51,794 bases of DNA from Actinomycetota bacterium (GTDB lineage: Bacteria; Actinomycetota; CADDZG01; JAHWKV01; JAOPZY01), in assembly GCA_050693695.1 (NCBI GenBank), contig JBOGWM010000282.1:1-51794 (forward strand), written 5' to 3'. Within the stretch, counting starts at the first letter, position 1. Each line of letters begins with the position of its first letter. The notes under the pieces were generated by a model. The model had not been told where the DNA came from and searched no databases. It saw only the letters and a list, made by a program, of their open reading frames with translations. Positions 17,671 through 23,107 of the stretch are shown here, piece by piece. Position numbers and translations under genes: made by a program.

Positions 17671-19488
17671 ATGACGGGTCAGACGGGCGACTCGACCAAG
17701 AAAGCGCTTGACGATGCCCTGAGCTTTCCCATCCTGACCGAGGAGGTCACCCTGCCGACGAACCCTCGGGAAACGGCCCCCGCCCCAGGGAGATCGCCGC
17801 TGAGCCAGATCATCCAGGGAGCCATCGGGGAGGTCCTGGGGTGCCTGCCGAAACCGGGCGACCCCAATTCCTTCCTCGAGGCGCTCAATAAGTCCTTCAG
17901 CCTGCAGAAGGTTTCGGGACATACGGAATATAGCTGGACGCCGCGAGGCTATACCGCCTATACCGAAATGGGGGCCGTGACCGGAGCGCAGGCCAGCCTC
18001 TTTGTTCGAGCCACCTCCGCCCTCGATGACTCCCTTCCCCTGCTCGAGGGGCTGAAGCCCCTGCGGGCGGACGCCGACCCTGAGGACAGCCAGGCTGCCC
18101 GGGCGATCGTGCGCTCCAACTTGACGGAGCTGGTGACCGAGCTGGGAGAGGTCGGAGGCCCTCGGGTGCAGCGGGTGGACGATCTCTTCGGGCTGCTGCT
18201 GGGGATCGACATAGCCCAATTCATCTCCGGGTCGACGTTCTCCATCGATGCGGAGGAGATCAGCGGCGACCTCGGCCTCCTGCGGGAGCGCCTCGGGCTG
18301 GAGCAGGATCGCGTGAACACCATCGAGGAAGAGCAGAACTTCACCAATTTCCTGGTCCTCGTCGACTACGTCCAGTCGCTCTTCCAGAGCTGGATCGTCT
18401 TCCGGGATGGTTTTGTCCGCACCGATGGCGAAGTCTTCTTCGGGACCCAACTCGTATTGTTGTCCCGCTCGCTGGGAGTGGTGGCCGAGTCGGTCCAGGA
18501 AACCTACTTCGCCATGAACTCGGTCTTCCTCGGACCGGCGGAGCGGGAGACAACCGATCTGAATCTCAGTGCGGTCACGCCCGGTGAGCCTGAGGCTCCG
18601 ATCACGGTGGCGGAGCTGCTCGATTGGGTGAGGACGGTCGCCGGGGAGGAGGGTCCTCGTCTCATCCGGGAAGGAGGCAAGGACGGGGTGATCGCTCTCA
18701 GCCCGACCCTGGACACGCTCAGCAGGCTGGTCTCGAAGACGTTCGAGCTGGCGAGCGATCCCTCACACCCCGCCAATCCCACCAGTGCCTTCCACACCGC
18801 CCGGGTGCAGCGTGCCCTGGAGGAGCTCTCCGCCCACCTGGAGGAGGCCTTCGATCTTGCCGGCGAAATCACGCGCGGCCGCCCGGAGATCATCGCGGTG
18901 GACCCCGAGTCGGTGTTTCTGGCAGAAGGGATACCCGTGCCGGAGCGGTTGGATGTGGACGGGGAGGGGTTCCAGAACGGCGCCCGAGTGTTGCTCAAGA
19001 ATCAGACCCCGCCAGACCCAACCGCGCCGACTGAGCTCGCGGGCGCCTCGGTCACGGTGGTGAGCCCGAACCAGGTCAGGGCCAGCTTCCTTTTCGCTCT
19101 CATTCACGCAGGTATCTGGGACGTCGTGGTAGAGAATCCCGACGGTGGCTTCGGGAGCGGAGTGACCTTCACCGTTACTGTGCCTCCTCCGGAGTCACCG
19201 CCGCCCCCCCCGCCCGAGGTGACCTCTGTAGAACCGTCCTCTCTCCAGCAGGACGATACCGCAACGGTAACCCTAACAGGCCAGGGATTCGCGCCAGGAG
19301 CGAGGCTCGATTTCGGCGACAGCATCGGCGTCGCGGTAAATTCGATCAACCCGTCGGCCATCGTCGCGGAGATCAACATCTCCCGCAACGCGGCCGTAGG
19401 CCCGAGAGATGTGAGTGTCACCAACCCGGATGGGCAAACGGGCACTCGGCCACAGGCTTTCCAGGTGACCTCCACCACCGTCCTATGA
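17671..19488 (+). CDS. Orphan 605-aa protein with two C-terminal IPT/TIG (Ig-like) domains joined by a poly-proline linker
   Basis: ATG at 17671 with GGGAGGAG at 17656-17663; the track ORF start at 17554 is rejected. The C-terminus reads ...IIAVDPESV...VDGEGFQNGARVLL...VVVENPDGGFGSGVTFTV-PPPESPPPPPPE-VTSVEPSSL..TVTLTGQGFAPGARLDFG...VSVTNPDGQTG. The N-terminal ~430 aa are unassigned. Confidence 0.75.
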   Translation: MTGQTGDSTKKALDDALSFPILTEEVTLPTNPRETAPAPGRSPLSQIIQGAIGEVLGCLPKPGDPNSFLEALNKSFSLQKVSGHTEYSWTPRGYTAYTEMGAVTGAQASLFVRATSALDDSLPLLEGLKPLRADADPEDSQAARAIVRSNLTELVTELGEVGGPRVQRVDDLFGLLLGIDIAQFISGSTFSIDAEEISGDLGLLRERLGLEQDRVNTIEEEQNFTNFLVLVDYVQSLFQSWIVFRDGFVRTDGEVFFGTQLVLLSRSLGVVAESVQETYFAMNSVFLGPAERETTDLNLSAVTPGEPEAPITVAELLDWVRTVAGEEGPRLIREGGKDGVIALSPTLDTLSRLVSKTFELASDPSHPANPTSAFHTARVQRALEELSAHLEEAFDLAGEITRGRPEIIAVDPESVFLAEGIPVPERLDVDGEGFQNGARVLLKNQTPPDPTAPTELAGASVTVVSPNQVRASFLFALIHAGIWDVVVENPDGGFGSGVTFTVTVPPPESPPPPPPEVTSVEPSSLQQDDTATVTLTGQGFAPGARLDFGDSIGVAVNSINPSAIVAEINISRNAAVGPRDVSVTNPDGQTGTRPQAFQVTSTTVL

Positions 19489-19584: not shown

Positions 19585-20712
19585 ATGGCGAGGGAACGGG
19601 AATACCAAAACCTCTTCGACCGCATCGCGGCGCTGAAGGAGACGCTGGCCAGCCGGTTGTCGGCCGACCTCCTTCAGAACCCGCAACTCGGGGAGGAGCT
19701 GGTCAAGCAGGTCGACGACCTGCTGACGGCCGCGGTGGAGGCGGACGCGAGGTCGATACCTCCCCCCGACAAGGGCCTGGCCGAGCTGGCCGGAGTCGGC
19801 CCCGAGGCGGCGGCGGAGTTCGGCCAGACCCGCATCCCCCCCGGCGTCCTGGCCTACGACGAGACGGTCACCTCCGAGAGGATCATCGCCACCGGCGACC
19901 TCTACTACATCTACCAGCACGAGAGGGTGGGAGTCTTCCGGGTGATCCAGAAGCTCCAGGAGCTGTTCCGGGCCGGGACGGCCCGGCTCTCCGCCGGGCC
20001 GGGCGCCTTCGCCCTCTACCAGTTCGACCGCCGGGAGGTCCTGCGGTATACGCAGCGGGATCGCCTGTCGGCCTACCGCCGGGCCTTCGGGTACGGCCGG
20101 GCCCCGGTTCCGGCCGGATCGCGCGCCAACACCGACTTCCACGGCCTCTTCACCCACTTCAACAATCAGGTCGCTCTGTTCTTCCGGGACAAGCGCATCT
20201 CCGACGTCATCCGCGAGCGCGCCTTCGATCCCAGCTTCGGCAGCATCGCCATCGTCCGGCGGGCCGGCCTGGACCTGCGCAACAATCTGAAGTTCACCTC
20301 CTTCGGCCACGTGAACGTCTTGCGAGTCGAGGTCATGCAGCTCCTGGAGGAGGCCTTCCGTATCCTGGAGTCCGACGATATCAAGCGTCTGTTCGGCGCC
20401 GATACCGCCTGGGACGTCGTTGAGGACGTGCTCGTCCGGCACTTCAACGAGCGGCTCGTCACCTCCCCCCGCCAGCGGATGGCGGTCGCGGGGAGGGAGG
20501 TGCTGCGCTGGCTCGCCCAGCCGCACATCCTCGAGACCACCCGGGTGGAGTTCGAGACCCTGCTGCTGCAAGTGGTGGAGTACGCGGAGGAATGGCTGAC
20601 CAGCGCCCAATCGCTCGGTCTGGCCCGGCGCTCCACCTCCCAGCGCATCCTGCCCTGGGATCGCCCGGCCTCGCCGGTCGCCAACGGCCAGCCCGCCCGC
20701 TCGGGGGGGTAG
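19585..20712 (+). CDS. Orphan 375-aa protein
   Basis: ATG with a GAGGAGG SD. The globular-looking sequence (…ATGDLYYIYQHERVGVFRVIQKLQELF…VLRYTQRDRLSAYRRAFGYG…) has no signal peptide or TM segment. No family was recognised. Confidence 0.7.
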   Translation: MAREREYQNLFDRIAALKETLASRLSADLLQNPQLGEELVKQVDDLLTAAVEADARSIPPPDKGLAELAGVGPEAAAEFGQTRIPPGVLAYDETVTSERIIATGDLYYIYQHERVGVFRVIQKLQELFRAGTARLSAGPGAFALYQFDRREVLRYTQRDRLSAYRRAFGYGRAPVPAGSRANTDFHGLFTHFNNQVALFFRDKRISDVIRERAFDPSFGSIAIVRRAGLDLRNNLKFTSFGHVNVLRVEVMQLLEEAFRILESDDIKRLFGADTAWDVVEDVLVRHFNERLVTSPRQRMAVAGREVLRWLAQPHILETTRVEFETLLLQVVEYAEEWLTSAQSLGLARRSTSQRILPWDRPASPVANGQPARSGG

Positions 20713-20774: not shown

Positions 20775-22244
20775 ATGACTGACGCAGATGCAAGTCTAGA
20801 GGAGTTTATTGAGTGGATGGATGAAGCGGTCTATGAGGCGCCGTTCCGGTCGGCCCGGGCGCCTGCCCGCCGCAGGCCCCCGACGGGACGGCAGGCCCGG
20901 AGGGCGACAACGCGAGCGCTTCAGCCTGCGCGTCCTGCCGTGGACATCAATCACGCGGTGGCTCGGAACCGAGTTCATAGACAGTCGCTGAGCTGGCAAC
21001 CATCTCTCGATGGCATCGTGCGGTATTTGGGATTCGGGACCAGGACGCCGGATGAGCCGCGGTTCGCCGAGGCGGTCGCGCGCTGGCAGCAGGATCAGAA
21101 CGGGCTCACGGTCGACGGCATCCTCGGGCCGCAGACGTGGGGGCGAATGCGAGGAGCGATCGGACCGGTCCCCTCCGTTGACATAGATCGTGCTATGCGT
21201 CGTAATCGCGACTATAGCCGGTCCCTGGGATGGGGAGCGTACGCTTCCACCATCTCCCGCCTCATCGGATTCGCGACCTCCTTTCCGAGCGAGCGGCAGT
21301 TCGCTGGGGCGACCGGGCGCTGGCAACGAGCCCAGGGAGGCCTCGTTGTGGACGGCATCCTCGGACCGAGGAGCCTGGCTCGAATGGAGTCGGCGCTGAG
21401 GCAGCCAGAGCTCGGTCTGACTCCGGATGGCCAGGCTGAGCTCTTCGTCACCCATATCCCGCCGATCCCCCCCGCCAGCGGGCCGTCCCGGATTCCGGGG
21501 GCGGAACTGGGTCACGAGATCCTGACTGAACGCGCCGCGAGGCGCGCCGGTATCGTCGCGGGGGATCCCTTGGATGCCGCACTTCGGGCAGGAGTAACCC
21601 GGGTGGACATCGGTAGAACGACCACCTTGCCTTTTGGCATCGAGCTTCCCTTGGAGCTTCCGGCCGCCCTCGTGCACGCCGTCGATCCCGCCGAGCAGTC
21701 GCGCCACGCCCTCCGTGGCGGGCCCGACCTGTGCCAAGACATGGCGACAGCTCTGAGGGGGGTCCGCAATCGTCTCATAGCCTTGCACGGCAACGCCCTG
21801 AGGGCCCCAACACGAGTCGCAGCCTTCGAGTCGATCGGCGAAGCGCTTCACTTGATCCAGGACTCGTACTCGCAGGCCCACACCGAGCGCGAATGGGCGC
21901 CGGCGCCGCCCCATCGGATCAGATACATCCGCTTCTTTGCCAGGGTGATCAATCCCTTCACGATCCCTCCCCGATCCCCGCTTATCCGAGGGAGGGCCCC
22001 TCACGAGCACCAGTTTCCGACGGACAACCGGGACAGCATCTTCAACCCGGGGGCAAGCCTGAAACCCGAAGCCTTGCGTGCCATCGACGCGAGCCACGAG
22101 TTCCTGGTGATGATCGTGCGGCATCTTCCAGGTCCCCCATCTTCCAGGACCGCTGCGGGCCTTCGTCGCTTCATGAATCGACACCTTGCACTTCACCCCA
22201 CCCCTCACGAGCCTGGGATGTTTCACCCGGGAACCTGTCCATGA
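20775..22244 (+). CDS. Protein with two tandem peptidoglycan-binding (PG_binding_1-like) repeats and a His-rich C-terminal domain (possible Zn-hydrolase/phospholipase C-like)
   Basis: The repeats VDINHAVARNR...FAEAVARWQQDQNGLTVDGILGPQTWGRM and VDIDRAMRRNR...FAGATGRWQRAQGGLVVDGILGPRSLARM are a PGB helical-bundle signature. The C-terminal domain contains ALHLIQDSYSQAHTE and PHEHQF. There is no signal peptide. Confidence 0.75.
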   Translation: MTDADASLEEFIEWMDEAVYEAPFRSARAPARRRPPTGRQARRATTRALQPARPAVDINHAVARNRVHRQSLSWQPSLDGIVRYLGFGTRTPDEPRFAEAVARWQQDQNGLTVDGILGPQTWGRMRGAIGPVPSVDIDRAMRRNRDYSRSLGWGAYASTISRLIGFATSFPSERQFAGATGRWQRAQGGLVVDGILGPRSLARMESALRQPELGLTPDGQAELFVTHIPPIPPASGPSRIPGAELGHEILTERAARRAGIVAGDPLDAALRAGVTRVDIGRTTTLPFGIELPLELPAALVHAVDPAEQSRHALRGGPDLCQDMATALRGVRNRLIALHGNALRAPTRVAAFESIGEALHLIQDSYSQAHTEREWAPAPPHRIRYIRFFARVINPFTIPPRSPLIRGRAPHEHQFPTDNRDSIFNPGASLKPEALRAIDASHEFLVMIVRHLPGPPSSRTAAGLRRFMNRHLALHPTPHEPGMFHPGTCP

Positions 22245-22354: not shown

Positions 22355-23107
22355 GTGATCATCGACGCTCACTGTCACGCCGGGAGGGGCGACCTCATGA
22401 CGGCGCCCTGGAACACCAACGCGCCCATCGAGCCGTACCTCAAGCGCGCCCGGGCGGCCGGTATCGACAAGACGATCGTGGTCCCGCCCTTCCACAGCGA
22501 CTACCGGCGGGCCAACGCCCAGCTCGCCCGGGTCGTGGCCCGCTATCCCCGCCGCCTGATCGGCTTCGGGATGGTGCATGCCCGCAGGGACGCCGGACGC
22601 ATCCTCCCCATGATGGAGCGGGCGACCCGGGAATGGGGATTTCGCGGGATGAAGGTTCACGGCCATGACGCCATGGCCACCCGGGAGGTGTGTGAAGCGG
22701 CCCGGGCCCTCCGGCTGCCGCTGCTGGTCGATGTCGTCGGGCGAACCTACCTGGTGGACCTGCTGGCCTCCGAGTACCCGGATGTTCACTTCGTCATCCC
22801 CCACTTCGGGAGCTTCGCCGACGACTGGCGGGCGCAGCAACAGGTGGTGGATCAGCTCGTCCGCCATCCCAACGTCCACGCCGATACCTCCGGCGTGCGA
22901 CGGTTCGACTACCTCGTCCAGGCGGTCCGGCGAGCCGGGCCGGAGAAGATCATCTTCGCCTCTGACGGCCCCTGGCTGCACCCGGGAATCGAGCTGGAAA
23001 AGATCCGCGTGCTGCGCCTCCCGCCGCACGAGGAAGCGCTCGTCCTGAGCGGGAACGCCCTGCGACTCCTGCGTGGGACGGGGAGCGGCGTGGAAGGATC
23101 CGGATAA
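22355..23107 (+). CDS. Amidohydrolase-family (TIM-barrel metal-dependent hydrolase) protein
   Basis: GTG start. IIDAHCHAG at the N-terminus, MKVHG, HFG and a late FASDGPW acidic motif. Confidence 0.75.
   Translation: MIIDAHCHAGRGDLMTAPWNTNAPIEPYLKRARAAGIDKTIVVPPFHSDYRRANAQLARVVARYPRRLIGFGMVHARRDAGRILPMMERATREWGFRGMKVHGHDAMATREVCEAARALRLPLLVDVVGRTYLVDLLASEYPDVHFVIPHFGSFADDWRAQQQVVDQLVRHPNVHADTSGVRRFDYLVQAVRRAGPEKIIFASDGPWLHPGIELEKIRVLRLPPHEEALVLSGNALRLLRGTGSGVEGSG

Follow-up and report, generated by a model that had tools for sequence, protein, structure and literature searches.

The window analysed here is a stretch of 51,794 nucleotides (nt) on contig JBOGWM010000282.1 of an Actinomycetota bacterium (assembly GCA_050693695.1), whose genome of 2.53 Mb is distributed over 325 contigs, has 67% GC and is 97.5% complete. 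Seven genes, termed A to G, form an operon on its forward strand (Table 1), and the genome contains this cassette in a single copy. The subject of this study is the last gene, G, which follows F after a gap of 62 nt. We consider it probable that G encodes a leaderless modular payload enzyme with a head of the phospholipase C (PLC)/S1-P1 nuclease type, and that it occupies the exchangeable last slot of an undescribed cassette of the order A-B-C-D-E-F-payload. From its N-terminus the protein would comprise a VYEAPF motif with an Arg-rich spacer, two tandem peptidoglycan (PG)-binding modules, a flexible linker ending in AEL|FVT and a metal-dependent phosphodiesterase domain of 266 amino acids (aa).

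Table 1. Features of the cassette and of gene G in the window (nt positions; res, residues of protein G)
Feature	Position	Strand	Basis or remark
Cassette genes A, B	13980-14861, 14924-15703	+	Order conserved in relatives
Cassette genes C (HExxH), D	15764-17107, 17111-17656	+	Order conserved in relatives
Cassette genes E, F	17671-19488, 19585-20712	+	Order conserved in relatives
Open reading frame (ORF) of protein G	20775..22244	+	489 aa from ATG 20775; 475 aa from ATG 20817
SLEEFIEWMDE acidic/aromatic stretch	20793..20825	+	Possibly 5' leader with GAGGAG ribosome-binding site for ATG 20817; basis: GC at third codon positions, public gene call at M15
VYEAPF (res 19-24), putative degenerate [LI]FEAPL tag core	20829..20846	+	Motif rarity; tag in relatives
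Arg/Pro-rich spacer, res 25-55	20847..20939	+	Translation
Putative extended PG_binding_1 module 1, res 56-125	20940..21149	+	Pfam, PHROG, self-alignment
Putative extended PG_binding_1 module 2, res 135-204	21177..21386	+	48% identity to module 1
Junction A221-E222-L223 / F224-V225-T226	21435..21452	+	F224 in always-aromatic column, candidate mature N-terminus; disordered in AlphaFold2 model
Predicted catalytic domain F224-P489, divergent zinc PLC/S1-P1-nuclease type	21444..22241	+	Family alignments, PF00882 in relatives, AlphaFold2, Foldseek
Candidate ligand codons	H247 21513, D278 21606, H311 21705, H359 21849, D363 21861	+	Conservation
Candidate ligand codons, continued	H369 21879, H412 22008, D417 22023, D420 22032	+	Conservation
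Amidohydro_2 gene	22355..23107	+	In relatives follows payload together with Peptidase_M20 gene; M20 missing here

In the translation of the window the reading frame of G is uninterrupted, and the ORF, the two repeats of about 70 aa, the His-rich C-terminus and the ALHLIQDSYSQAH motif described in the original prediction were all recovered in it. The public gene call begins at M15. Translation may start at either of two ATG codons: AGGGGGA lies 5 nt upstream of the first and GAGGAG lies 12 nt upstream of the second. The GC content at third codon positions (GC3) is 0.43 in codons 1-14, as compared with 0.71-0.86 in the first 14 codons of all other tabulated starts. Because of this low GC3, the internal GAGGAG and the public call at M15, the SLEEFIEWMDE stretch may be largely untranslated. 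No hydrophobic segment indicative of a signal peptide or membrane helix was found in G (best 19-aa Kyte-Doolittle mean, 1.3), in agreement with its earlier description as signal-less. A Tat or Sec signal was rejected because such a stretch is absent.

A duplication of PG-binding modules had also been proposed, and alignment of G with itself argues for it: residues 55-130 and 134-209 share 48% identity over 75 aa without gaps (E = 3e-24), and repeat 1 scores above the cut-off of PG_binding_1 (PF01471) at residues 95-125 (35.2 bits vs 23). This match spans profile positions 28-57 only, and repeat 2 was assigned to the family via its identity to repeat 1. Since Pfam covers only the second half of the profile, and this in repeat 1, each repeat is best read as a PG_binding_1-like module that is extended at its N-terminus by an additional helix, 'VDIxxAxxxNRxxxxSLxW'. 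PHROG endolysin families match the same PG-binding stretch, and one sister cassette has the same extended module in its unrelated M15_4 payload (see below). The N-terminal half of G varies among orthologues (loci and family members are designated L and P, respectively). Two PG-binding modules are present here, one in L002 and none in L004, and in cyanobacterial orthologues a different N-terminal domain of about 200 aa stands in their place. In L009-L016 this domain is conserved ('RFATYLKRQGFLPT..RFDPRTF..GYNTRIAVVRGVPI') and a linker, for example 'REAEWELESELEWEFESEF', comes after it.

The C-terminal part of G contains 16 of its 18 His residues within the last 275 aa, including the motif ALHLIQDSYSQAHTE (residues 357-371, nt 21843-21887) and PHEHQF (residues 409-414). 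Scanned in full with HMMER, 1.84 billion cluster representatives yielded only 98 relatives of this domain (clusters at 50% identity); further members were added by word-seeded searches, and alignments of 45 and later 140 relatives were made. H359, D363 and H369, together with H247, D278, H311, H412, D417 and D420, show no variation in the alignment of 45 relatives and a conservation of at least 90% in that of 140. Judged by the conservation of H359, D363 and H369, the His-rich motif is not a chance string. Invariant or near-invariant positions in the two alignments comprise G246-H247-E248, D278, R310-H311, L313-R314, H359, D363, H369, R372, R386, E411-H412, D417 and R419-D420. The accessory domains found among the 140 relatives are PG_binding_1 (32), PG_binding_3 (7), OmpA (4), Amidase_2 (3) and a glycoside-hydrolase-like domain (1). 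Weak matches to GIY-YIG (2) or NERD (3) precede the PG-binding or catalytic part in P0006, P0007, P0017, P0054 and P0060, which suggests that such PLC-type payloads may be multi-warhead proteins. We regard the C-terminal domain as a rare, previously unannotated and very divergent branch of the zinc PLC/S1-P1 nuclease superfamily.

Several lines of evidence make it very probable that the domain belongs to this superfamily. The conserved order H, D, H, H-x3-D-x5-H, H, D corresponds to the zinc-ligand pattern of phosphatidylcholine-preferring PLC (PC-PLC) and P1 nuclease. G itself falls outside strict membership of PF00882 (Zn_dep_PLPC): no match was obtained at E <= 1, nor was any found in the genome at E <= 10. 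Nevertheless, a phmmer search with the domain of the window reached P0157 (E = 1e-9), and the distant homologues P0157 and P0162 pass the PF00882 cut-off (27.6 and 27.3 bits vs 26.8). Matches to PF00882 at E <= 0.01 were seen in 8 of the 45 and then 24 of the 140 family members, the best at 1e-7, whereas other catalytic families matched at most three of the 140 members each, and weakly. The link of G to PF00882 is transitive, through its relatives. No relative among the 140 matched PF02265 (S1-P1), nor Het-C (PF07217) at E <= 0.01, the motif here being HxxxDxxxxxH.

The AlphaFold2 model built on the 45-sequence alignment is mostly helical, with a predicted local distance difference test score (pLDDT) of 84 and a predicted template modelling (TM) score of 0.84; residues 215-242 are disordered. 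A Foldseek search of the PDB, which the original prediction had proposed as a check, gave PC-PLC, alpha-toxin, S1, SmNuc1 or plant S1-like nucleases for 23 of the top 50 matches, none of them individually significant. In a control search with protein F the matches were a random unrelated mix. A Foldseek search of BFVD gave nothing. The distances D278-H311 and H369-H412 exceed those of PC-PLC; in P0145, the shortest of the relatives counted by hand, they are 14 and 28. The original prediction had likened the His/Asp spacing to the metal site of zinc PLC and P1-nuclease-fold enzymes, as a weak assignment. The transitive PF00882 links, the full ligand pattern and an aromatic residue that is a candidate equivalent of Trp1 speak for that assignment, although G itself stays below the Pfam and PDB thresholds.

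This aromatic residue is F224, within the sequence 'QAELFVTH'. Among the 140 relatives its column holds Phe in 94, Trp in 35 and Tyr in two, so that 131 are aromatic, and the exceptions are fragments or misalignments. Relatives of the F type share the junction consensus [AG]-[ED] (94%)-x-F-[VFW]-[TVI], to which the A-E-L-F-V-T of the window conforms. Two relatives with classical signal peptides, P0111 and P0120, have an AxA site directly before the aromatic residue ('...PVWA|FSNEY' and '...APAWA|FDNEF'), and in several others a hydrophobic N-terminus stops just before 'WFVK'. Residue 1 of zinc PLC and P1 nuclease is a Trp whose free alpha-amino group binds a metal ion. The F224 position may well be the counterpart of this Trp1.

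Because the amino group of residue 1 binds metal in those enzymes, G would be active only after cleavage before F224; it would thus be a zymogen that is armed by a cut at this position. In Listeria PC-PLC the W1F mutant stays active, one added N-terminal residue abolishes activity, and removal of the 26-aa propeptide by the metalloprotease Mpl allows the enzyme to leave the cell wall (PMC10576769). By analogy with the activation of Listeria PlcB by Mpl, the cleaving enzyme could plausibly be the HExxH protein C of the cassette, and the PG-binding modules would keep the pro-form at the wall. The acidic blocks of A and B end in GEE|FL and SEE|FF, similar to the junction of G. A cleavage motif common to all payloads was rejected: [AG][ED]xF[VF][TV] was not seen in the VanY, M23, amidase or muramidase payloads when these were inspected by eye, without a formal scan, and for this reason the junction appears to be specific to the PLC-type domain. 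Outside the cassette, a second pairing of a PLC-type protein with a metalloprotease-like one occurs at L006 (6783-8500), where a relative that passes PF00882 has a C-terminal PG_binding_1 domain and a propeptide 'MYIRAHG...GLG|W', and the next gene encodes an HExxH protein with a similar beginning, 'MYIMTT'.

The genomic context of G is conserved across phyla. The order A-B-C-(D)-E-F-G is kept in Scytonema hofmanni UTEX 2349, two Tolypothrix, Pantanalinema, an Elainellales metagenome-assembled genome (MAG) and an Acidobacteriaceae MAG, and a reduced cassette is kept in Synechococcus-labelled and Eremiobacterota MAGs and several metagenome contigs. Wherever the flanks sufficed, G stands directly after the F orthologue (Cyanobacteria, Acidobacteriota, Eremiobacterota and many metagenome contigs). 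Identity to the proteins of the window is 50-71% for C and F and 35-44% for G. A G-type payload lies just 3' of F on the same strand in L002, L004, L007, L009-L012 and L015-L018; other payloads take this position in L039, L040, L043, L055, L064, L075, L081, L093, L127 and L138. The upstream order A-F is kept in L002, L009-L012, L015, L016, L040, L127, L138 and others. In sister cassettes tblastn places tagged genes for VanY, Amidase_2, M23, M15_4 or Muramidase proteins directly downstream of F orthologues, in the slot of G. The payload slot is therefore exchangeable between a PLC-type enzyme and peptidoglycan hydrolases. Since F orthologues occur in three of 401 sampled genomes of the phylum of the window, the distribution of the cassette is sporadic.

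No membrane helix was found in the seven cassette proteins. PADLOC and PHROG searches with all seven gave no defence or phage family except for the PG-binding match of G, and the genes neighbouring G had no PHROG match. G does not combine a lytic catalytic domain with the context of a phage lysis module, as a phage endolysin would, and PHROG covers its PG-binding part only. In L081, where three payloads stand in tandem, no immunity-sized ORFs were found between them (gaps of 48, 93 and 26 nt). A LuxR-type regulator adjoins the cassette. The search of the literature for the tag letters discussed below, or for a system of this kind, returned nothing.

Protein F ranks with the most conserved proteins of the cassette, its identity being 52-71% except in two outliers at 36%. 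Its AlphaFold2 model is all-helical (pLDDT 69.5), and Foldseek found no structural neighbour for it in the PDB. In many non-cyanobacterial cassettes a Peptidase_M20 gene and then an Amidohydro_2 gene follow directly 3' of the payload or payloads (L002 11285-13563, L004 7135-9470, also L043, L057, L059, L076, L081, L085, L127 and L138). In divergence (51-60%) these two genes are comparable to F. The Amidohydro_2 protein of the window is 71% identical to that of L002, and the window is without an M20 gene. These genes may be part of the system or a marker of a conserved insertion site. At L001 (8277-12462), in a relative of lower GC content, a divergent operon opposite the core genes contains the G orthologue and also encodes a trypsin-like and an Aspzincin_M35 protein; the latter begins 'MQAPPQFEHH', like 'MQPPRTEFQLEHE' of family member P0020.

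Many members of the C-terminal domain family begin with 'M..Q....LFEAPLAHE'. A scan of metagenomes for DNA encoding FEAP[LF]AHE gave 101 loci, and after exclusion of off-frame chance matches the motif stands 4-13 residues from the start in no fewer than 25 distinct proteins that lack a leader and are often encoded in runs of two or three. By Pfam these include VanY, Amidase_2, Muramidase, Peptidase_M15_4 with PG_binding_1, and Peptidase_M23 proteins; others combine PLC-type, PG_binding_1 and Amidase_2 domains. A/B-like proteins of sister cassettes also carry it ('MAIFEAPLAHE...(PEAWE)n...DRFLGGLARRLGG'), whereas A and B of the window lack FEAPL. In G the pattern [VILM][FYW]EAP[LFIVM] is found as VYEAPF, and just one further match exists among the 4.46 million residues of the six-frame genome translation; the chance of a match at the N-terminus of G is about 1e-5, for a pattern that was written after the motif had been seen. 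The identification of AVYEAPF with the LFEAPLAHE tag could not be supported by a hidden Markov model (HMM), which leaves the rarity of the motif as its sole support. In orthologues of G an acidic/aromatic block is retained, with a basic run after it, e.g. ADLEFEDELGRRGQAGR, and in a crude test of acidic-plus-aromatic composition 23% of family N-termini were positive, compared with 8% of genome N-termini. As a separate feature, many tagged payloads (seen at L064, L075, L081, L133, L040 and L043) have a Cys motif, C-N-C-x-E-C, just after LFEAPLAHE; it could form a small zinc knuckle, is followed by an acidic block such as 'EREWEA' before the enzyme domain, and is absent from G of the window.

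The original prediction had raised the possibility that G shares a recognition or packaging tag with A and B. In principle this idea is supported, since one tag heads many payload enzymes placed 3' of F orthologues and some A/B-like proteins of sister cassettes, but the letters it named are probably not the right ones. SLEEFIEWMDE is probably not the tag, VYEAPF being the better candidate, and the likeness of G to the N-termini of A and B in the window is compositional only. We propose that the N-terminal tag would be read by a component of the cassette for handling, loading or release.

As to its function, the substrate of G would be an envelope phosphodiester, most likely phospholipid head groups, because enzymes that degrade the wall fill this slot elsewhere and members of the family are fused to PG_binding, OmpA and amidase modules. 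Its chief competitor as substrate is nucleic acid, and other wall-linked phosphodiesters are possible. Two readings remain for the purpose of the cassette, which may attack other cells or bring about a protease-triggered lysis of its own cell from within. Tentatively, and with rather less confidence than we place in the payload assignment, we suggest a protease-triggered envelope-breaching or programmed-lysis system that would combine a swappable G, acid-masked cationic A and B proteins, an HExxH protease and three other proteins, without a membrane or motor protein; a cut before the invariant Phe would create a metal-binding N-terminus, and the system would be distinct from known secretion, contractile injection and phage lysis systems.

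A number of observations speak against the proposed reading of G. The C-terminal domain of G has no sequence match in Pfam, NCBIfam or the PDB, and profiles of G and its family find PG-binding structures only, with no PLC or nuclease, among PDB sequences. Comparison of the core family by hhalign with two other PF00882 subgroups, from the phylum of the window, was not significant. The best PLC match in Foldseek, 1AH7, has an E value of 0.6, a probability of 0.54 and TM scores of 0.24/0.27, which is not significant. The last ligand pair is H-x4-D instead of H-x3-E/D and lies in a non-helical stretch of the model. F224 is internal in G, so cleavage there would separate the PG-binding modules from the enzyme, and it stands 23 residues before H247, as opposed to 13 in PC-PLC, the longer distance being attributed to a lineage-specific insertion. 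The HMM of the LFEAPLAHE tag does not score the N-terminus of G. Finally, no export route is evident, because the cassette has neither a membrane protein nor an ATPase.

Could the C-terminal domain instead be a nuclease of the S1/P1 side, making G a DNA- or RNA-degrading toxin? Both activities exist in the superfamily (PMC3482391); the Foldseek matches include S1, SmNuc1 and plant nucleases, the weak GIY-YIG and NERD matches occur in a few family members, and a phosphate substrate of any kind would be compatible with the many invariant Arg residues. We nevertheless consider a nuclease improbable, as the accessory domains are overwhelmingly directed to the envelope, peptidoglycan hydrolases otherwise fill the operon slot, and PF00882 is the only Pfam family matched, PF02265 never. 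Even less credible is the view that the domain has no catalytic role and only binds metal or serves a structural purpose, or that its fold is an unrelated one. The want of a significant structural or direct profile match for G would be in keeping with it, yet eight near-invariant His/Asp residues in PLC order, several invariant Arg residues and the PF00882 matches in relatives fit an active site, and we rate this explanation as highly unlikely.

A further alternative, compatible with the enzyme assignment, is that the payloads are endolysin-like enzymes of self-lysis: on a trigger, the cationic A and B proteins would permeabilize the membrane of the producer in a holin-like manner, and the leaderless wall and lipid hydrolases would then reach the envelope from inside and lyse it for content release or as an abortive response, so that G would not be a weapon against other cells. 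Endolysin-like payloads and the absence of immunity genes and of an exporter make this fit. The payload set (Amidase_2, Muramidase, VanY/M15, M23, PG_binding_1) is that of modular phage endolysins, PHROG endolysin families match the PG-binding part of G, no cassette protein has a transmembrane helix or signal peptide, the tandem payloads of L081 have no immunity-sized ORFs between them, and the LuxR-type regulator is adjacent. On the other hand, there are no phage genes nearby and no PADLOC or PHROG match to the core genes, polymorphic payload arrays and a dedicated tag would hardly be needed for self-lysis, and pore formation by A and B is conjecture; on balance we find self-lysis doubtful, though well ahead of a nuclease. 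Much the same doubt attaches to the suggestion that the N-terminal likeness of G, A and B reflects a shared composition of Glu and aromatic residues with no role in recognition, SLEEFIEWMDE being untranslated. The GC3 of 0.43 with the gene call at M15, the failure of the tag HMM on G, the lack of FEAPL in A and B of the window and the result of the composition test (only 23% vs 8%) all agree with it. Against this, six or more unrelated types of enzyme in relatives, and A/B-like proteins too, carry MNRQxPxLFEAPLAHE at the N-terminus, nearly unchanged and in every case at residues 4-13, VYEAPF is one of just two such motifs in the six-frame translation, and orthologues keep the acidic/aromatic block and basic run.

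Returning to the preferred reading of G as a payload enzyme with a PLC/S1-P1-type head, we compared it with known systems. Zinc PLCs (Bacillus cereus PC-PLC, PDB 1AH7, and Listeria PlcB) share with G the ligand order His, Asp, His, H-x3-D-x5-H, His, Asp/Glu and have a helical domain, as is predicted for G; most members of its family likewise possess an aromatic residue, some 12-16 positions ahead of the first His. PlcB also offers a parallel to the proenzyme logic proposed for G, with a gene for a zinc metalloprotease in its operon (mpl-actA-plcB, to be set beside C...G); its pro-form is held at the cell wall (PMC10576769), as that of G would be. Unlike these enzymes, G is below all sequence and structure thresholds for direct membership, has no signal peptide and has a predicted activity only. 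Its pro-part of 223 aa, with two PG-binding modules and a putative tag, contrasts with 14-26 aa in the known enzymes, and it has Phe for Trp, longer ligand spacings and H-x4-D at the last site. The S1/P1 nucleases (PF02265; P1, S1, SmNuc1, AtBFN2, TBN1) likewise have the superfamily ligand pattern and recur among the Foldseek matches, but PF02265 was not found in the 140 relatives of G, and the domain context of G suggests the envelope rather than nucleic acids.

The Tox-HET-C domain of polymorphic toxin systems with a PVC (Photorhabdus virulence cassette)-type metallopeptidase (Zhang et al., 2012; PMC3482391) resembles G, in the reading preferred here, as a divergent PLC/S1-P1-like, exchangeable toxin head accompanied by a processing metallopeptidase. 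The Het-C motif is HxxxDxxxH, however, where G has HxxxDxxxxxH, and the relatives have no Het-C Pfam match; moreover, G has no contractile-injection or Rhs genes nearby and is encoded as a separate payload, downstream of a core cassette of another kind. Modular phage endolysins and the mycobacteriophage lipid esterase LysB, which presumably has a PG-binding domain, are leaderless like G and combine PG_binding_1 with an envelope-degrading catalytic domain, and the sister payloads use the classic catalytic domains of endolysins. G differs from them in having no phage context, a PLC-type and not a cutinase-type head, a putative N-terminal tag in common with other payloads and a constant position downstream of six non-phage genes. 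Finally, cargo of extracellular contractile injection systems (N-terminal loading sequences) and of type VI secretion systems (Tae/Tge/Tle sets) shows the same use of a short N-terminal address on interchangeable wall- or lipid-degrading enzymes, often in tandem. In contrast to those systems, no sheath, tube, ATPase or membrane component is found in or near the cassette, and no adjacent immunity genes are found in the arrays examined.

Overall, G is best understood as a divergent variant of a known enzyme superfamily that is used as the swappable payload of an undescribed cassette. The new branch of the superfamily comes with candidate catalytic residues and a candidate activation site, L223|F224. 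The six-gene core spans cultured cyanobacteria (Scytonema hofmanni UTEX 2349, Tolypothrix) and soil phyla, and its leaderless payloads with a common short tag point to an undescribed handling of envelope-degrading enzymes. The tag, the protease and the culturable hosts open the cassette to experiment.

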